Below, one piece after another: positions 5,831 through 54,400 of a stretch of DNA of 64,000 nt (position 1 is its first letter; each line of letters begins with the position of its first letter). Position numbers and translations under genes: made by a program. The notes beneath the pieces were generated by a model, which saw only the letters and a program-made list of their open reading frames with translations, was not told the origin of the DNA and made no database searches. The stretch covers positions 45,573 to 109,572 of the forward strand of contig JANQOE010000128.1 in NCBI GenBank assembly GCA_028279245.1, given 5' to 3'. Source of the DNA: Alphaproteobacteria bacterium (GTDB lineage Bacteria > Pseudomonadota > Alphaproteobacteria > UBA6615).

Positions 5831-6317
5831 CTATCCCGCTTGATTCAATGTGTTTTAGGCCCGGTCATTAGGCTGACGTACAGCATCCAAATCAAACAAA
5901 ACTCGGCTTCTAACACTGTCTCGCGAAAAAGCGAGATTTCTGACTAACAACAACGCGGTACCCGGGTGTCCGAAAGGTACCCACGGGAGATTAGAGTGGA
6001 TTCCAGGCTAATTCGCGCAGTGCGACACCGTGCAAAGGGATGGTCGGGACCCGGGACCTTCCTACAAGCTGTGTTCAGCTTCAACGGCCATAAAACAGCG
6101 TGGGACACCGCCCTCCCACCGCGCCATAGAGCCTCTTGGCCGGCCACTCCGGGATGGCCGGGATCGAATCAGCCTCGAATGGATACCCCACCTGTGCCGG
6201 ACGTACCGACGGAGTTGTCGCTCTTGAGGATGCAAGACTTGCCGGCCGATGACTATGTTGCGCCTGCGTGGTGTGAGGGCGTGAACGCGAGGTCACGTAC
6301 AGATCGGTGGCGAGCAT

Positions 6318-7535
6318 ATGCAGATTGAGACGCTGACGAGAGTTGGTCCTCGTAAGGGCGACGGCACCCGGGTTCCGGTGATCTTGTTGGATGGCGACCA
6401 CAATGCGCTTTCGGTTGCGCGGCGCCTGGCAGCCGAGAGTGTCACGGTTTACGCGATCTGCGCCGCGGCATCGCATGTGAGGTTTTCGCGCAGCGCCGAG
6501 TACCTTGGGCTAGCTGGCGGCGATGCGGCGTCTTGGGAAGCATTCCTACTCGGTACAGAATCGGAATCCTATCACGGGGCGATACTTATTGCTTGCGGCG
6601 ACCAAGGCATTGAACTGATCAATCGGAACCACGAACGGCTGGCCGCCAAGTTCATACTTGAGGAGTTTGATCCGAAGTTACGCCGTCAACTCCTCGACAA
6701 ACGCCAGACCTACGAGATCGCCAAGGGGGCCGGGATCCCGTACCCACATTACGTTGAGATCGAGCCCGATACGGACCCCGAGGTCGTGTTCGAGACCGTG
6801 CGGCTCCCAATTCTGCTGAAGCCGCCCTACGCCCCCGACTTCGCCCGCGCGTTCGGAACCAAGTGTTTCCTGCTGAACGACGAAGATGAGGCGCGCCGCG
6901 CTATCGACGAAGTCATCCGCCGGAGGATCCGGTGCCTGGCAATGGATTTCATCCCCGGCGGCGACGAACAGCTATGCAGCTTCACCACCTATCGTACGCC
7001 GGAGGGCGAGGTCCTCTTTCGCTACACTAAGCACGTTATCCGGCGGAACCCGCCAGGTTTCGGCACCGGCTGCTATCACGAAATGGACCACAACGAGCGC
7101 GCGGCGGAAGCCGGTGCAGCTTTCTTCGATCGCATCGGGCTCGTTGGGTTCGGAAACGTCGAATTCAAATGGGATGAGCGAGACTCCCAGCTCAAACTCA
7201 TTGAATGCAACACCCGGTTCACCCAGGCAAATCAGCTCGTCGAAGCCGCCGGCCTTGGACTGTCGCGCATAGTCTATTCGCGCCTGGCCGGACGGCCGGC
7301 CCAGCCCGGCGGCTCGTATCAGGCTGGACTGCGCCTTTGGTACCCGATGCACGATTTCCGGGCATTCCTGGCATTGCGCCGACGCGGAGAACTGACGGCC
7401 ACGGCCTGGTTGCGGAGCCTGGTACACAGGAAGGTGTGGCCAGCCTTCTCCTGGCGCGACCCAGTGCCCAGTTTCATGGTCCAGACAAGTCGCGTGCTTC
7501 ACCTCCTGCGCCATGGGCGCGCAGGAAAGCTGTAG
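6318..7535 (+). CDS. ATP-grasp carboxylate-amine ligase (COG3919 / D-aspartate ligase-like)
   Basis: DKRQTY..AGIPYP, PILLKP, DFIPGGD, NVEFK.D.RD..KLIECNTR and C-terminal WRDPVP. Confidence 0.85.
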   Translation: MQIETLTRVGPRKGDGTRVPVILLDGDHNALSVARRLAAESVTVYAICAAASHVRFSRSAEYLGLAGGDAASWEAFLLGTESESYHGAILIACGDQGIELINRNHERLAAKFILEEFDPKLRRQLLDKRQTYEIAKGAGIPYPHYVEIEPDTDPEVVFETVRLPILLKPPYAPDFARAFGTKCFLLNDEDEARRAIDEVIRRRIRCLAMDFIPGGDEQLCSFTTYRTPEGEVLFRYTKHVIRRNPPGFGTGCYHEMDHNERAAEAGAAFFDRIGLVGFGNVEFKWDERDSQLKLIECNTRFTQANQLVEAAGLGLSRIVYSRLAGRPAQPGGSYQAGLRLWYPMHDFRAFLALRRRGELTATAWLRSLVHRKVWPAFSWRDPVPSFMVQTSRVLHLLRHGRAGKL

Positions 7536-47178: not shown

Positions 47179-48231
47179 CTAGCCGGCAACCTGCGCGGTT
47201 GCGGCCTCTCGAACCTCGGACATAACCCTGTTCCGGCCCGCCTCTTTCGCCGCGTATAGGGCCCCATCCGCGCGGCGAATTAGACTGTCGAGCGGCTCGC
47301 CGCGTCGGTACTCCCCGACGCCGATCGATACCGACACCTTGCAGAGAATCTCGCCCGTGGACTTCTTCACGATATTGCGCCGGCTAATCAGCATCCGGAT
47401 CTGATTGGCGACGATGCAGGCCGCCTCGATCTGCGTTTCCGGCAAGATGATCGCGAACTCTTCACCGCCGAACCGCGCCGGCAGGTCACGACCTTTGACG
47501 GATTGCATCAGCGATTGGGCAATCAGTTTCAACACTTGGTCACCCATCAAATGACCGAAGTCGTCGTTGAACCGCTTGAAATGATCTATATCCAGTAGCA
47601 GCAATGAGAGGGGCGTCTCGTCTTCGATCGCATCCGCCGTGCGATCCTGTAGTTCCTGATCGAAGCGGCGGCGGTTCGCGATGCCCGTCAGCATGTCGGT
47701 CATCGCTTCGTTTTGGACTTCTTCGAGGTTGGCCTTCAGCTCGGCGACTTCTTCCGAAGACTCTTGCAGCTTCTCCTCAAGCTCCTTGGTCCGCTCGCCC
47801 ATCCGGCGGGTTTCTTCGACGATGCTAGAGACGATGCGGTGCACGTCCTCGGCCGAGCGCTCTTCCTGCAATTGATCGGAAAACCCGGAAATCGCTTCGC
47901 TGTAGCCGTGCGTGCTGTGATTGACCTGTTTGACGTGATCGAGAATGCGATCGACCGCAGCTTCGATATGGGCGCTGGTGGTGAAAAGCTTGTCACCGTC
48001 ATCCTGCCCGAAGAACTGCTGGTAGATGTTGTAGCAGCGCAAATCGTCGATCGTCTGGCCCGCGGCGATCGCGTTGTCGATTACGGCGTTGAGTTCCGGG
48101 TCGCGCCCGGCAACGTAGTTGAACCAGACTGTGAAATTGTTCGGGTTCGGCGAGAGACCCAGCTCCGTCATCCGGACCAGGGCTTGATCCGCGTGCGCCT
48201 TTGCTTGTCCCGGGCTGTCGTAATAGACCAC
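47179..48231 (-). CDS. Diguanylate cyclase (DgcB/VdcA-like architecture)
   Basis: P.P.NF.VW..Y N-terminus, coiled coil, DIDHFK and R.GGEEF; GGAGAGG RBS. Confidence 0.92.
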   Translation of the reverse strand: MVYYDSPGQAKAHADQALVRMTELGLSPNPNNFTVWFNYVAGRDPELNAVIDNAIAAGQTIDDLRCYNIYQQFFGQDDGDKLFTTSAHIEAAVDRILDHVKQVNHSTHGYSEAISGFSDQLQEERSAEDVHRIVSSIVEETRRMGERTKELEEKLQESSEEVAELKANLEEVQNEAMTDMLTGIANRRRFDQELQDRTADAIEDETPLSLLLLDIDHFKRFNDDFGHLMGDQVLKLIAQSLMQSVKGRDLPARFGGEEFAIILPETQIEAACIVANQIRMLISRRNIVKKSTGEILCKVSVSIGVGEYRRGEPLDSLIRRADGALYAAKEAGRNRVMSEVREAATAQVAG

Positions 48232-48266
48232 CGTCCTCTCCTATGCGGCCAGACGGCGGGACAATA

Positions 48267-48282
48267 CTAACGCGTGGTTAAC
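48267..48282 (+). promoter_or_regulatory. CtrA-like site upstream of the DGC
   Basis: CTAA-CGCGTGG-TTAAC (1 mismatch), plus a TTAACC half-site at 48306. Confidence 0.55.
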
Positions 48283-48621
48283 AACGCGTTTCGTGATGGC
48301 CCCAGTTAACCCTGAAAACCAGGGTCAAATCCCAACGAAGAAGTCGCGATCAGGAGGGGAGGCGGGTGCCCGAATCTCGCTGCAGCAGTTCGATCCCGGT
48401 CCAGTTGACCAGTGGGGCTCTGGAGTACCCGGTGCCGCAAAGGCCAGCCTCGGCGGCCTCGCGTGATTGCGGCTCACGTATCTCGTCCTGCCACCTGCGC
48501 CGCATTGACAGGCCGTGGCCGGAAACCGGCCGAATGGAAGCAACTCTCATGATCGGCGCCCTCCCGCGATCAAGAGTGGCGGCGAACCTGGGCAAACCAA
48601 AGGCGGCTGCCGTGACAAGAA

Positions 48622-49596
48622 TCAGTCGCCACCCGGTTGGAAGGTATGGCGGGTCACCCGCCGCCACCGGGCGAGCACCAAGGCCAGGATCACCCCGGTG
48701 GCCCCGCCGGCCACGTTCATCTCCAAGTCCAGCAGGCTGGGGGACCGGCTTGGCAGCCGCAGCTGTGCTGTCTCGATACCCAGGCTGACGAGGGCAATTC
48801 CACCGACTATTGCGACCGCCATGGGCCACCGCAGCGACGGAAACCACAAGGCCGCCAGCAAACCAAGCGGGATGAAGCCCAGATAGTTGATGGCCAGGTC
48901 CAGGGTCGATCCAAACGCTCCGGATGGATCGCGTACGACCCAGAACGGGCTTTCCTGAACGGCCGGGTCCAGCAGGTCGAGCGACACCGCACCGGTACGC
49001 AATCCCGCCCGCTCAATACTCCCAAGCCACGGCCGATCCATCGTGACCTCGTTGCCCAGGGCAACCCGATGCAGGGGCGACCAATCGCCAAGCCCACCGG
49101 TGACCGCAATTTCTTTGGCCGGCTGCCCGTCAACAGCAACGCTGAACGTGCTGTCCTCCAGCGTTAGCGCTACATCCACCCACTTCTCCGGGCTAAAGAC
49201 GTCGTGAATCAGGAGATCGGGTCGTCCATTCCTGTCCGAACCCGGCCGTCGCAACCTGACAATCAGGTCGTCCTTGTTCTGGGCAATTGTCAGATTACGC
49301 GTGCTCGGGTCCTGAGAGATCGTGAGAATGCGAGCCGGGCCGTCGATATCGCGCGAGGCCGGCCGCACCCGAAGGTCGACCGCAAACTCGCCGCTCTCGA
49401 TAGCGGTCTCAATCCATTTCGATCCAACCGGAACCATGACGATCCCTGGACCGGGAAACTCCAGCGTCTCATCGGTCTTGGCCTGGTTGGGGTAGACCTC
49501 CGGGACGTCAAGCAGCCCCTGCGGCGCCAGCCCGAACACCGCGTAGGGCAACAGGACCAGGGCTGTGATGAGGAGCTTCTTCGACCGGCGGCGCAT
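48622..49596 (-). CDS. Concanavalin/LamG-like domain + VanZ membrane protein
   Basis: GPARILTIS..RNLT..Q and LGNE...RPW.G; C-terminal N..GFIP.G, IE..Q...R..S..D...N..G. Confidence 0.8.
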   Translation of the reverse strand: MRRRSKKLLITALVLLPYAVFGLAPQGLLDVPEVYPNQAKTDETLEFPGPGIVMVPVGSKWIETAIESGEFAVDLRVRPASRDIDGPARILTISQDPSTRNLTIAQNKDDLIVRLRRPGSDRNGRPDLLIHDVFSPEKWVDVALTLEDSTFSVAVDGQPAKEIAVTGGLGDWSPLHRVALGNEVTMDRPWLGSIERAGLRTGAVSLDLLDPAVQESPFWVVRDPSGAFGSTLDLAINYLGFIPLGLLAALWFPSLRWPMAVAIVGGIALVSLGIETAQLRLPSRSPSLLDLEMNVAGGATGVILALVLARWRRVTRHTFQPGGD

Positions 49597-49714
49597 CAAG
49601 CCTTGGTAGCCTTGGCCCCGAACCGGCGAAACGGCGCAGGAGGAGCAATCACGACCAAGACTTAGCCCGATCGGGCATGTGCCGGCGACCGGGCCGGGTG
49701 AGGCCCGCGCCAAC

Positions 49715-49723
49715 TGCTATACT
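49715..49723 (+). promoter_or_regulatory. Extended -10 element of ligD
   Basis: TGcTATACT ending 6 nt before ATG 49730; no SD. Confidence 0.5.
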
Positions 49724-49729
49724 CCGGAA

Positions 49730-52219
49730 ATGCCGCCCGCAAAGCTCGAGTCCTACCGCAAAAAGCGCGACTTCCGCCGCACCTCCGAGCCCGCTGGCCG
49801 TTCTGGCCTTACGTCGGAAGGAACGGGGCCGATCTTCTGTATCCAGAAGCACGCGGCCACTCAGCTTCACTACGATCTCCGCCTGGAAATCGGCGGAACG
49901 CTAAAGAGTTGGGCCGTGGCGCGCGGGCCCAGCCTGGACCCGAAGGTCAAGCGCCTGGCGGTCCACGTCGAAGACCACCCGCTGGACTACGCGGATTTCG
50001 AGGGGATTATCCCGAAGGGCCAGTATGGCGGCGGGGAGGTCATCGTTTGGGACCGCGGCCATTGGGTCCCGATGGGCGACCCGGCGACTGACCTCGCTGC
50101 CGGGCAGATCAAGTTCCGTCTGGCGGGCACCAAGCTCAACGGCGGCTGGACCCTCGTCCAGCTCAAGAGCGGCCGGGACGCCAACGGTAAGAACTGGCTG
50201 CTTATCAAGGAGCGAGACATCTACGCCAAGCCCGGCGCCGAGGTCGACGTGGTCGAGGAACTCCCCCTAAGCGCCAAGACCGGCCGCGCCATCGAGGAAC
50301 TGCGGATCCAAGCGAAGGCACCGCCGAAGAAGCCGGTTCGCCTCGCACCGGGCAGGATCAAGGGCGCAAAAAAAAGCCCGCTGCCCGAACAGGCCCGACC
50401 ACAGCTCGCCACACTAGTGGAACTGCCCCCGGGTGGGGACGATTGGCTGCACGAGATCAAGTTGGACGGCTACCGGACCTTGGCGCGCATCGAAGGGCAG
50501 GACGTCCGCCTCTTCACCCGCAATGGCCACGATTGGACCGAGCGCTACCAGTCGGTCGCCGACGCGTTGCAGGACATTGGCCTGAAGTCGGCGCTGATTG
50601 ACGGCGAGGTCGTCGTGCAGGACGGCCAGGGAAAGACGAGCTTCCCGGCACTGCAAGACGCGTTGGCAACCGGGGCGACCGAGAAGCTGGTCTTCTTCGC
50701 CTTCGATCTTCTGTATCTGAACGGATACGACCTGCGGCAAGTGCCGCTGGCGAACCGCAAAACCACGCTGTCGCGGTTGATGGATGCGCATGTCACCGAC
50801 ACCGGCGCCCTCCAGGTGAGCGAGCACGTCACCGGAAATGGTTCCGCCTTCTTTGCCCACGCGGCGCGGCTGGCCCTCGAAGGTGTGATCTCGAAACAGG
50901 CCGACGCCGCCTATGTCGAGGGCCGCACCAAGTCGTGGCAGAAGTCCAAATGCCTGTTGCGGGACGACTTTCTCATCGTCGGCTACACCGTCTCCACTGC
51001 GGCCGGCGGCCTTGCCGCGCTGTGCCTGGCGGAAGAAACCGCCGACGGCCTGTCCTATGTCGGCAAGGTCGGCACGGGATGGAGTGCCGAAGTTGCGGCC
51101 GATCTCCGTAAACAGTTGGAGCCGCTAGGCCGCAAGACCGCGCCCTTCCGCCGGCCCAAGGGCGTGAAGGCGAATGACGCCTCGTGGGTCAAACCGGAGC
51201 TGATGGCCGAGATTCAATACACCGCGCGCACGGAAGAGAATGCCGTGCGCCACGCGGTTTTCCAGGGTCTTCGTGCCGACAAGCCTGCCGCCGGTCCCGA
51301 CGCCGTCGTGCAGCGCGAGCGTTTCGTCACCGACCAGCATCTCGCCCAGATCTGGATCACCAACCCCGACCGCGAAATGCTGGAGCCGGGCGGCCCATCA
51401 AAGTTGGATATCGTGCTGCACTACGCCAAGGTCGGCGACTGGATGCTGCCGGAGATCATCAACCGGCCGCTGACTCTCATCCGCTGCCCCACCGGCAAGA
51501 TCAAAGACTGCTTCTATCAGCGGCATCGGTCCGAAGGCATGCCGGCGGACATCAAGGGCATCGAGGTTCGGGAAGAGGGCGAGCCGGAGCGGGCGGAATT
51601 CATCTACGTGGACGGGGCCAGCGGCCTGTTGCAATTGGCCCAGTTCGGCGTCATCGAGGTGCACCCCTGGGGCGCCCGCATCGACAAGCTCGACCGTCCG
51701 GACCGCATTGTCTTCGACCTGGACCCGGACGAAGGACTGGATTGGCGGGACGTTGTGGCGGCCAGCTTCGATGTGCGGGACGCGTTAGCAGAGCTTGGAC
51801 TCGCCGGCTTCGTGCGCACCACCGGGGGGAAGGGCCTGCATGTCGTCGTCCCGATCAAGCGGCGGCATACCTGGCCGGCCGTGAAGGAGTGGACCCGTCG
51901 CTTCGTCGTCGCGATGGCCGAGAAATCCCGGCGGCGCTACACCGCGAACCCGCAAAAGAACCAGCGCCGCGGCCGCATCTACATCGACTATCTGCGCAAC
52001 ACCCACGGTGCGACGGCTGTCGGTTCATTCTCTTTGCGCGCCCGGGCCGGCGTTCCGGTCGCCACGCCGCTCACCTGGGACGAACTGACCCGGCTTGAGG
52101 ATCCGGCTCAGTTCAACTGGCAGACTGCGCCGGACCGCTTGGCGACGCTGACGTCGGAGCCTTGGGCGGGTTTCGAAGACGCGGCCCGTACGTTGCCGAA
52201 ACTTCCCGGCAGGAAGTGA
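49730..52219 (+). CDS. ligD: NHEJ DNA ligase D (phosphoesterase-ligase-polymerase)
   Basis: Y..KRDF..T.EP and QKH.A..LHYD.RLE (PE); EIKLDGYR and EGVISK (LIG); FDLDP, TGGKGLHV and YIDYLRN (POL). Confidence 0.97.
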   Translation: MPPAKLESYRKKRDFRRTSEPAGRSGLTSEGTGPIFCIQKHAATQLHYDLRLEIGGTLKSWAVARGPSLDPKVKRLAVHVEDHPLDYADFEGIIPKGQYGGGEVIVWDRGHWVPMGDPATDLAAGQIKFRLAGTKLNGGWTLVQLKSGRDANGKNWLLIKERDIYAKPGAEVDVVEELPLSAKTGRAIEELRIQAKAPPKKPVRLAPGRIKGAKKSPLPEQARPQLATLVELPPGGDDWLHEIKLDGYRTLARIEGQDVRLFTRNGHDWTERYQSVADALQDIGLKSALIDGEVVVQDGQGKTSFPALQDALATGATEKLVFFAFDLLYLNGYDLRQVPLANRKTTLSRLMDAHVTDTGALQVSEHVTGNGSAFFAHAARLALEGVISKQADAAYVEGRTKSWQKSKCLLRDDFLIVGYTVSTAAGGLAALCLAEETADGLSYVGKVGTGWSAEVAADLRKQLEPLGRKTAPFRRPKGVKANDASWVKPELMAEIQYTARTEENAVRHAVFQGLRADKPAAGPDAVVQRERFVTDQHLAQIWITNPDREMLEPGGPSKLDIVLHYAKVGDWMLPEIINRPLTLIRCPTGKIKDCFYQRHRSEGMPADIKGIEVREEGEPERAEFIYVDGASGLLQLAQFGVIEVHPWGARIDKLDRPDRIVFDLDPDEGLDWRDVVAASFDVRDALAELGLAGFVRTTGGKGLHVVVPIKRRHTWPAVKEWTRRFVVAMAEKSRRRYTANPQKNQRRGRIYIDYLRNTHGATAVGSFSLRARAGVPVATPLTWDELTRLEDPAQFNWQTAPDRLATLTSEPWAGFEDAARTLPKLPGRK

Positions 52220-52384: not shown

Positions 52385-53284
52385 ATGGCCCCGCGCGCCA
52401 CCTGGAAAGGCTACATGAAGCTGTCGCTGGTCTCTTGTCCGGTGCGGCTTTACAACGCGACTTCGTCCACCGGACGCATTGCTTTCAATATGCTTCACAA
52501 GGACACCCACAACCGGGTGCAGATGAAGCCGCATGACCCCGAACTGGGTCAGGTCGAGCGGCGCGATCTGGTGAAGGGCTACGAATTCGAGAAAGACCAG
52601 TACGTCATCGTGACCGATGAGGATCTCGACGCCGTCCAGATTGAGTCGACCAAAACAATCACCATCGACAGCTTCATCGATGCGGCCGAAGTCGACCAGA
52701 TGTACCTGGATGCGCCGTACTACGTCGCACCGGATGGTCCCGTCGCCGAAGAAACCTACCGCGTCATTCACGAAGCCATGGCGAAGCGCCGCAAGGCGGC
52801 GCTGGCCCGGGTGGTGATGTCGAATCGCGAGCGCATGGTGCTATTAACCTTGCGTGACAAGGGATTCGTGATGACCACCCTGCGCAATGCCAGCGAAGTC
52901 AGGGGCATCGCCGACTACTTCGACGATATTGGTGACGACGCACTCGACGACGAGATGCTGAAATTGGCCGAGCTGATTATCGATCAGCATGAGGCCGAGT
53001 TCGACCCGAGTGCGTTTGTCGACCAGTATCAGCTTGCACTCAAGGACCTGGTGAAGGCCAAAGTGAAAGGCACACAACCGATTATCGCGAAGGCGCCGGA
53101 GCGCGGTAAGGTCATCAATCTGATGGACGCGCTGAAGCGCAGCCTGGAAGACAGCGAGGGCAAGAAGCCGCCGGCGCCCAGTAAGCGGCGCACCAAGGCG
53201 CGGGCCAGCAAGACAAAAGCATCGTCCAAAACGTCCGGGCGCACGCGCAAGACCGCAACGTCTCGGGCCCGCAAGTCGGCCTAG
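52385..53284 (+). CDS. ku: NHEJ protein Ku
   Basis: PRATWKG...LSLVSCPV.LY.AT, VKGYE, INLMDALKRS and a basic tail; GGAGGT RBS. Confidence 0.97.
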   Translation: MAPRATWKGYMKLSLVSCPVRLYNATSSTGRIAFNMLHKDTHNRVQMKPHDPELGQVERRDLVKGYEFEKDQYVIVTDEDLDAVQIESTKTITIDSFIDAAEVDQMYLDAPYYVAPDGPVAEETYRVIHEAMAKRRKAALARVVMSNRERMVLLTLRDKGFVMTTLRNASEVRGIADYFDDIGDDALDDEMLKLAELIIDQHEAEFDPSAFVDQYQLALKDLVKAKVKGTQPIIAKAPERGKVINLMDALKRSLEDSEGKKPPAPSKRRTKARASKTKASSKTSGRTRKTATSRARKSA

Positions 53285-53302
53285 GAACTCGGGAGACCGG
53301 CC

Positions 53303-54400
53303 ATCGATAAACAGGTATTCGCCGGCAAAACTGTCGTTCTGTTTGGGCGGCTCTCGCGGTTGTCCCAACGGCGAGCCGCCGGATTGGTCTCCGAACACGG
53401 CGGCACTGCCCGCCGCGGCCTCACCCGCACCACCGACATCGTGGTTGTTGGGCATGGGGCGCTTGATCGCCTCGTCGACGGCAGCCTCGATGCAAAGCTC
53501 GACCGGGCGCGCAGACTTGGCGTGAACATCTGGAGCGAAGACAAATTCCTCCGCCATATCGGCATTGGTGAGACCCTGTCACCGGCCCACCGGACGATGC
53601 CCCTGAGCGAAATCGCCTCGCGCGCGGGTCTGGACGAACAATTCGCCTGGCATCTCGCGCTGTTCAATGTGATCGAGCAAGACGAGGATGGCCTGTTCGG
53701 CTTCCGCGATTTGGTCGCCGCACGGGAAGCCGCCGGCTTGGCCAAGGACGGCGCGGAGGAGCGCGAGATTGTTGCATCGATGGCGGAAGTCCGGCGCCGT
53801 CGCGGCGCCGTTCCGTCCCAGGTGCATTTCACCCGCGGCGAAAGCGGCGAAATCGTCCTGTCCCTTGGCGACAAACAAGTCGGTCTCGACGGCCAGATGC
53901 AGCTCGACTTGCCAAGAGCCGACAATCCAACCGTCGATGAGCTGTTTGAGGCCGCGGAAGACGCGGAGCTGGCGGGCGAATGGTATGCAGCCGAGCGTCT
54001 CTACCGGAAATGCGCGGATCTTGATCGCAGCGACCCGATCATTCCGTTCAATCTGGCCAATGTACTGCGGGAAGAGGGGCGCAACGCGGAGGCCAGATTG
54101 GAACTCCAGCGTGCCGTGAAGCTCGACGCGAAGTTCGCCGAAGCCTGGTACAATCTGGCCGATCTATCCCAGGGCGAGGAAGACTACCCGCAGGCAAAGA
54201 GCCACCTGGAACGCGCCCTGAAAATCGACGGCGACTATGCTGACGCCTTATTCAACCTCGGCCACGTTCACTACAAGCTCGGCGAACTCGCCGACGCCGG
54301 GGTGTACTGGTCCCGTTACCTGGAGTTCGACCACGTCAGCGAATGGGGCAAGATCGCCCGCGACGGCCTGAGACTGTGCCGGGTCGCGAACCAGGCGTAG
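53303..54400 (+). CDS. BRCT + MerR-like HTH + TPR protein; probable ATC start
   Basis: In-frame FAGKTVVLFGRL...HGG......TDIVVVG...AKL..A..LGV.I.SE..FL (BRCT); F.F.DL HTH-like segment; about 4 TPRs (FNLA/YNLA/FNLG). Confidence 0.8.
   Translation: MDKQVFAGKTVVLFGRLSRLSQRRAAGLVSEHGGTARRGLTRTTDIVVVGHGALDRLVDGSLDAKLDRARRLGVNIWSEDKFLRHIGIGETLSPAHRTMPLSEIASRAGLDEQFAWHLALFNVIEQDEDGLFGFRDLVAAREAAGLAKDGAEEREIVASMAEVRRRRGAVPSQVHFTRGESGEIVLSLGDKQVGLDGQMQLDLPRADNPTVDELFEAAEDAELAGEWYAAERLYRKCADLDRSDPIIPFNLANVLREEGRNAEARLELQRAVKLDAKFAEAWYNLADLSQGEEDYPQAKSHLERALKIDGDYADALFNLGHVHYKLGELADAGVYWSRYLEFDHVSEWGKIARDGLRLCRVANQA

Follow-up and report, generated by a model that had tools for sequence, protein, structure and literature searches.

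In the textbook view, bacterial end joining (NHEJ) is a pathway of two proteins, Ku and LigD, that is separate from replication. The clamp motif of polymerases and repair proteins is the pentapeptide QL[SD]LF. Another class of clamp motif is the hexapeptide of Hda, which reads QLSLPL in E. coli and has the consensus QL[SP]LPL (PMC3836487, where Dalrymple 2001 is cited for the clamp motif). The Caulobacter hexapeptide, QFKLPL in HdaA, is required in vivo for the interaction with DnaN, for which co-localization or FRET served as the assay (PMC3836487). Because the Caulobacter motif by itself failed to localize YFP to the clamp (PMC3836487), a motif alone is not sufficient evidence of clamp binding.

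A search of full-text literature found no paper linking LigD or Ku to a clamp-binding motif and no description of a BRCT/TPR gene in Ku/LigD operons, and the phrase “clamp-binding motif” had zero occurrences in the NHEJ papers listed by the full-text search. The 64,000-nt stretch of DNA analyzed here (the window) encodes, next to LigD and Ku, a 365-amino-acid (365-aa) protein in which a conserved hexapeptide, Q-[LMF]-x-L-[P/A/D]-[LV], sits where a MerR-like module meets a set of TPRs. Because the peptide is conserved and clamp-like, the protein is a candidate for a third partner in end joining, one that would be linked to the clamp.

Gene order and start sites

The genes for LigD and Ku lie directly 5′ of the BRCT/MerR-like/TPR gene, and all are on the same strand (Table 1). 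LigD has phosphoesterase, ligase, and primase-polymerase domains. The two proteins match their equivalog models and are encoded side by side as an NHEJ gene cluster, which bears out the original prediction that the protein carrying the motif is linked to NHEJ. The ORF finder placed ligD at 49679 to 52219; the probable start is the ATG at 49730. The probable start of ku is the ATG at 52385 (MAPRATWKGY), and its TAG stop occupies 53282 to 53284. From this stop to the start of the BRCT-TPR gene there are 18 nt in the window and mostly 3 to 30 nt in relatives.

The ORF finder's version of the TPR-protein gene runs from 53360 to 54400, in the same frame as the motif. This frame is open from the ku TAG to 53360, with no ATG, GTG, or TTG in between, and the stretch from 53303 to 53360 encodes the first strand of the BRCT domain. 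We placed the start upstream of 53360 because the starts of homologues align there and because the BRCT match depends on the longer reading. The N termini of homologues (P-M-I-D) align with P-A-I-D in the window, where GCC (53300 to 53302) stands in place of the relatives' ATG, and a reading from 53303 is needed for the match to PF00533 to exceed the gathering cutoff; the PF00533 search with the protein read from 53360 returned no match. The most likely start is the ATC at 53303, which a GGGAGA box precedes by 6 nt. In the public gene call, this protein (338 aa) begins even later than 53360 and loses part of the BRCT domain. The ku TAG is in frame with the BRCT-TPR gene, and read-through would therefore join both proteins.

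Upstream of ligD and divergent from it, genes for a LamG/VanZ-domain protein (48622 to 49713) and a GGDEF diguanylate cyclase (47179 to 48231) occupy the − strand of the region from 47179 to 49713. On the other side, an FkbM-type methyltransferase gene (PF05050; 54440 to 55195, same strand) begins 40 nt past the stop of the TPR-protein gene and is followed by genes for a phosphonate-binding protein and a sensor histidine kinase.

Table 1. Genes and protein features at the ligD-ku locus, in window coordinates
Feature	Coordinates	Strand	Residues	Basis
ligD (DNA ligase D)	49730..52219	+		PF13298, PF01068, PF04679, PF21686; TIGR02776, 652.6 bits (cutoff, 373.2)
ku (bacterial Ku)	52385..53284	+		PF02735, 150.2 bits; TIGR02772, 281.1 bits (cutoff, 150)
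Probable ribosome-binding site GGGAGA (53291-53296) and noncanonical ATC start (53303-53305)	53291..53305	+		Start codon inferred
Gene for the 365-aa BRCT/MerR-like/motif/TPR protein	53303..54400	+		Homologues; AlphaFold2 model
BRCT domain	53309..53557	+	3-85	PF00533, 22.1 bits (cutoff, 21.3); alternating strand/helix
MerR-like winged-helix/helical domain	53585..53812	+	~95-170	VIA-align; Foldseek; FtsR
Three-stranded beta meander	53825..53881	+	175-193	DSSP strands 175-178, 184-188, 191-193
GQMQLDLP, candidate Hda-type clamp-binding hexapeptide Q198-L203 (G-Q-h-x-L-x-h-P element)	53891..53914	+	197-204	Translation; conservation
TPR domain, helices	53933..54394	+	211-364	TPR_11, 61.9 bits; Foldseek

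Architecture of the third protein

The 365-aa protein opens with a BRCT domain, followed by a helical domain that is MerR-like. A small beta meander comes next, and the motif and a short linker then lead into the TPRs. A full-length AlphaFold2 model, built on a 98-sequence alignment, had a mean pLDDT of 95.1 and a pTM of 0.62, and the low pTM against so high a pLDDT suggests that the modeled domains are mobile. Residues 1 to 85 are BRCT-like in this model, residues 101 to 167 form the helical domain, and the meander is followed by coil with one beta bridge, at M199. Linker residues 201 to 210 were modeled at lower confidence (pLDDT, 71) ahead of the TPR helices. A second model, of residues 92 to 215 alone, was built from 47 sequences of related loci (pLDDT, 88.7).

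The middle domain resembles the MerR family mainly in its predicted fold; a Pfam scan at an E value of ≤0.01 gave no MerR match in the 365-aa protein and a PDB sequence search with a middle-domain profile gave nothing useful. VIA-align returned CbpM, TnrA, CvkR, SoxR, PbrR, GlnR, MerR, and CueR over about 65 to 78 residues at Z scores of 5.0 to 7.8, which are middling for the tool but come from a consistent family of matches. The CbpM chain is PDB 3ucs, where it is complexed with the CbpA J-domain. Foldseek with the model of residues 92 to 215 gave E values of 0.02 to 0.1 to MerR-type chains, and NCBIfam FtsR matched the 365-aa protein at an E value of 7.4e-5, under the model cutoff. ESM Atlas clusters with BRCT and MerR_1 (scores of 0.81 to 0.88) are leads only.

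For the C-terminal part, TPR_11 (cutoff, 26.8 bits), TPR_2 (52.5 bits; cutoff, 27), and other TPR models exceeded their cutoffs. Foldseek with the whole model found TPR proteins only, with consensus TPR proteins and the OGT TPR domain at E values of about 1e-8. A search for longer fused forms (640 to 2000 aa) with query residues 1 to 215 found none at an E value of ≤1e-5, which is weak evidence for this tool. Its combination of BRCT, MerR-like, and TPR parts makes the protein adaptor-like. The N-terminal BRCT domain, the MerR-like domain, and the start upstream of the first ATG, GTG, or TTG were absent from the original prediction.

Conservation of the hexapeptide

The forward strand encodes GQMQLDLP, as first reported, in frame with the ORF at 53360 to 54400; the span originally given, 53894 to 53914, encodes QMQLDLP. 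The peptide does lie in the linker before the TPRs, past the meander and 7 residues ahead of the TPR helices, the first of which begins at residue 211. Conservation in a multiple sequence alignment had been named as a check on the motif, and the glutamine proved to be conserved both in a 98-sequence alignment and among representatives of 50%-identity clusters.

A word-based search found 456 homologues at an E value of ≤1e-3. Among the matches listed, the best 120 of the 456, G-Q stands at the aligned site in 120/120 rows (the query and 119 hits). Ninety-eight sequences were aligned, namely, the query and 97 of the best 120 of 456, with relatives 35 to 71% identical to the query; the self-hit was left out, as were 22 rows, picked by eye, that were N-terminally short or near-duplicate. 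In this alignment G197 and Q198 are invariant (98/98) and make up two of only 15 invariant columns, and the family consensus is G-Q-[LMF]-R-L-P-[LV]-P. Position 199 is L in 45 sequences, M in 35, F in 16, and T and Y in 1 each, which gives L/M/F in 96/98. Position 200 is the variable one, with R in 72, V in 7, L in 6, Q and M in 4 each, and I in 2. Position 201 is L in 97 and I in 1; position 202 is P in 81, A in 8, S in 4, D in 3, and E in 2. Position 203 is hydrophobic in 98/98 (L80, V11, M3, F2, and I2), and position 204 is P in 55, A in 17, G in 9, D and E in 7 each, and R in 1.

Mean entropy was 0.89 bits for residues 197 to 204, compared to 1.92 for 171 to 196, 2.02 for 205 to 210, and 1.65 for the whole protein. 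By conservation, the 8-residue window of the motif ranks 31 of 358, and the better-kept windows are mainly in the TPR and helical cores. The motif is kept among orthologues while its flanks vary, in that downstream residues 205 to 210 are variable and the upstream E-L-D-G is partly conserved. A profile of residues 92 to 215 searched against 1.84 billion cluster representatives matched 889 proteins at an E value of ≤1e-3. Of the 144 additional profile matches listed, 133 span the motif site, each representing a 50%-identity cluster. Among these listed representatives, Q is present in 132/133, G in 129/133, and L/M/F/I at position 201 in 130/133, and the four that have D, S, or A instead of G all retain Q.

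As a control, alignments were scanned for 6-column windows where the pattern Q[LMFIVY].[LMIF].[LVMFI] is matched by 90% or more of the sequences. At the motif site the pattern fits 97/98 family members, and in other windows of the family it fits ≤13%, so that 1/360 windows of the BRCT/MerR-like/TPR family reached 90%. The controls had 0/366 for DnaN, 0/294 for Ku, and 0/841 for LigD (0/1,501), with a maximum of 13%. Single matches are common. In the crude ORF set of the window's own genome (4,692 ORFs, 1.23 million residues, each ORF having a GC3 of >0.75), the pattern Q[LMF].L.[LVMFI] occurs 116 times, against 159, 179, and 179 times in three shuffles, and this genome therefore shows no enrichment over shuffles. 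A single occurrence of the motif is within chance, and the conserved feature is beyond it. Conservation carries the case because one occurrence per genome would not be beyond chance.

Class of the motif

Two readings of the peptide had been proposed, a hexamer of the Hda type and the pentamer QLDL. The hexamer reading finds support in the sequence, since QMQLDL agrees with the consensus of the hexapeptide class (Q at position 1, a hydrophobic residue at 2, L at 4, and a hydrophobic residue at 6) and 97/98 of the family fit. The pentamer reading, QLDL(P), was rejected as a family feature because Q200 is found in only 4/98 relatives (72 have R) and P stands at the fifth position, where the pentapeptide has F.

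The DnaN encoded by the window's own genome (L001:745-1857, − strand) is canonical and ends in the conserved ...MPMRV. It also has an Hda-like gene (L114:1489-2148, contig C52; 219 aa, with a TTG start per the ORF finder) whose product begins MTNRQLALDL; this gene was found with TIGR03420 at a score below the model's cutoff, and the PF00308 search for Hda in the same genome returned DnaA only. From this single case, x-L-D-L in the window, with a D at position 5 that is uncommon in the family, is the type of motif that the same cell presumably uses. Five other family-bearing genomes have QLAFDL, QLALEL, QLALGL, QLPFPF, and QLTFDL in Hda and QMPLLL, QLRLPM, QLRLPM, QLRLPL, and QLQMPL in the family protein, and the two sets are of the same class. 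No co-variation between the Hda motif and the family motif was visible in the 6 genomes, and little is expected because the clamp pocket is conserved.

Clamp binding and the alternatives

We predict that QMQLDL, or QLRLPL in the family at large, is a functional Hda-type DnaN-binding motif, and we give this prediction an even chance of being right. It is favored by the near-exact match to the Hda consensus, by a glutamine that is the best-kept residue, by prolines inside and after the motif, and by the zero rate in controls, as well as by the drop in model confidence from residue 201 on and by the DNA-repair context. Our reservations arise from the modeling of G197 to Q200 as a hairpin edge, from the invariant glycine, and from the internal site near the TPRs; at 7 residues from the first TPR helix, this position could hinder docking on the clamp. 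Bacterial NHEJ is usually tied to nonreplicating states, which also counts against clamp binding.

Instead, the segment may be structural, an explanation that is unlikely but a serious contender. D-G-Q would then be a tight turn, Q-h-x-L the last edge strand, and P-L-P a stiff connector fixing how the MerR-like module is angled against the TPRs, and the likeness to a clamp motif would be convergent. In the full model, residues 191 to 200 have a mean pLDDT of 90 and M199 forms a beta bridge; in the domain-only model, with no TPRs present, the equivalents of M199 and Q200 persist as a two-residue strand in a block with a pLDDT of 85. As modeled, G197 to Q200 appear to lie in a fairly ordered hairpin edge, and because the bridge and the strand-like M199-Q200 recur in the two models, Q198 and M199 may belong to the meander as an edge strand and thus perhaps not be free. 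The pLDDT is 85 to 90 for residues 197 to 200 and, from residue 201 on, 71 in the full model and 68 in the domain model, which, like the P at motif position 5 in 81/98 sequences, is unlike a regular strand. Prolines at that position and just after the motif (55/98) suit an extended linear motif better.

The sequence around the motif can be weighed in the same way. The E/D-L-D-G flank preceding Q198 is also conserved in the 98-sequence alignment (L195-D196-G197), and together with the invariant G197 it fits a tight hairpin turn; to our knowledge, an invariant glycine is not a feature of clamp motifs. Against a purely structural role, Q is retained where G is lost, and the meander strands are far less conserved than the motif (mean entropy of 1.92 versus 0.89 bits). 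Alternating hydrophobic residues, as found in the motif, are also the pattern of a half-buried strand, but none of the 1,501 control windows from well-folded proteins holds a conserved hexamer of this pattern.

It is unlikely, in our estimate, and slightly more so than a structural role, that the peptide is a short linear motif for a partner other than DnaN; that partner might be Ku, LigD, or another copy of the protein, whose TPR groove would take up the peptide in self-association or autoinhibition. TPR domains bind extended peptides, as the OGT-peptide complexes among the Foldseek matches illustrate, although the 7-residue linker would be too short, judging from the model, for the peptide to enter the TPR groove of its own chain. 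The closeness of the gene to ku, in the window and in relatives, and the domain mobility suggested by the pTM and pLDDT would suit such a partner, whereas the agreement of the motif with a specific clamp hexapeptide at 5/6 consensus positions would not be explained by it. A chance match without function is scarcely credible. The pattern does occur 116 times in a single proteome, where shuffled sequences have no fewer matches, yet it is near-invariant across the 133 cluster representatives and in a family whose members share as little as about 35% identity, and this conservation contradicts chance.

Association with Ku and LigD in relatives

Linkage was examined in 80 related loci from a one-genome-per-species collection, using tblastn with the window's Ku and LigD. 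At 63/80 loci Ku is found upstream, on the same strand, at a distance of no more than 500 nt, and at 8/80 it lies 1 to 2 kb upstream; 6/80 have no Ku although their upstream DNA spans 1 kb or more, and at 3/80 Ku was not assessable. LigD is within 8 kb at 56/80 loci (32 upstream and 24 downstream). Among 301 sampled genomes of the same class, 12 had full-length family matches, the window's own genome included, and the remaining matches covered TPRs only. The family is large and alphaproteobacterial and travels with Ku and LigD. The BRCT-TPR gene is almost certainly a conserved third member of Ku-LigD clusters, and its role there is read only from its domains.

In several metagenome-assembled relatives (L005, L014, L017, L026, and L075), Ku was found as two adjacent tblastn pieces, which suggests frameshifts, possibly from assembly errors. 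In one sampled genome (G101:C15:42029-43057), the family match itself falls into two adjacent pieces, at profile positions 3 to 165 and 191 to 365, and this split may reflect a frameshift or else a break immediately ahead of the motif.

Sinorhizobium meliloti carries a family member on pSymB (CP073680.1, L122:2563-8509), where the order is ligD, an unannotated gap, the BRCT-TPR homologue (5998 to 7083), a second unannotated gap, and exonuclease III. The gap after ligD is where ku would be expected; it is unannotated in a gene table that is incomplete. The homologue is annotated as “tetratricopeptide repeat protein,” and its motif reads GQLLLDV. Quantitative NHEJ assays, based on plasmid religation and I-SceI, are established in this organism (PMC6379672), and the main text of that study mentions neither BRCT nor tetratricopeptide. 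Published ku2 deletions in S. meliloti might be polar on the downstream BRCT-TPR gene.

Proposed role

If the peptide does bind the clamp, the hexapeptide would dock on DNA-loaded DnaN, in its hydrophobic pocket, while Ku, LigD, or DNA would be held by the BRCT domain, the MerR-like domain, and the TPRs. End joining would thereby be coupled to clamps left on DNA. Our broader proposal is tentative, and we think it more doubtful than probable: alphaproteobacterial NHEJ would be a three-part system with the BRCT/MerR-like/TPR protein as its core scaffold, docked on DNA-loaded clamp through the hexapeptide and holding Ku and/or LigD with its other domains. Joining would then either be steered to DNA that carries clamps, such as broken forks, gaps, or freshly replicated DNA, or exploit the clamp as a platform on which LigD slides. 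If true, a third gene with a clamp-docking peptide would give NHEJ a scaffold, functionally reminiscent of eukaryotic BRCT-bearing end-joining adaptors, and would for the first time connect NHEJ physically with the replisome clamp. S. meliloti allows a direct test of the idea because a family member is present on pSymB and NHEJ assays already exist (PMC6379672).

Comparison with known systems

Like two-component NHEJ, in which a Ku homodimer acts with LigD, the locus has the same Ku and a multidomain LigD in one gene string. The difference is the conserved third gene directly after ku in 63/80 loci. Individual domains of the third protein also resemble known ones. Residues 3 to 85 align to the BRCT end of models for LigA, the NAD-dependent ligase (E value, 8.5e-9), but the 365-aa protein is without the ligase part and scores far below the whole-LigA cutoff. 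The middle domain resembles in fold the N-terminal domains of MerR family proteins (TnrA, GlnR, SoxR, and CueR) and CbpM, at Z scores that are middling for the tool (5.0 to 7.8), whereas the C-terminal effector domain of the MerR family is missing and the beta meander lies outside the matched region.

Among clamp motifs, the window's QLDL fits the first four positions of the pentapeptide QL[SD]LF, but the fifth residue is P and Q200 is not kept in relatives. The comparison with Hda is closer, although there are differences. The candidate motif of the 365-aa protein is internal, at a domain junction, and is preceded by an invariant glycine and a conserved turn, whereas that of Hda is at a free N terminus; its carrier is a BRCT/MerR-like/TPR protein, and Hda is an AAA+ relative of DnaA. 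In the peptide itself, QMQLDL in the window parallels QLALDL in the Hda of the same genome. The family consensus QLRLPL differs from the Hda/HdaA hexapeptide only at the variable third position, and the same is true of the family variant QFRLPL (P0049) when it is set against QFKLPL of Caulobacter HdaA (PMC3836487).
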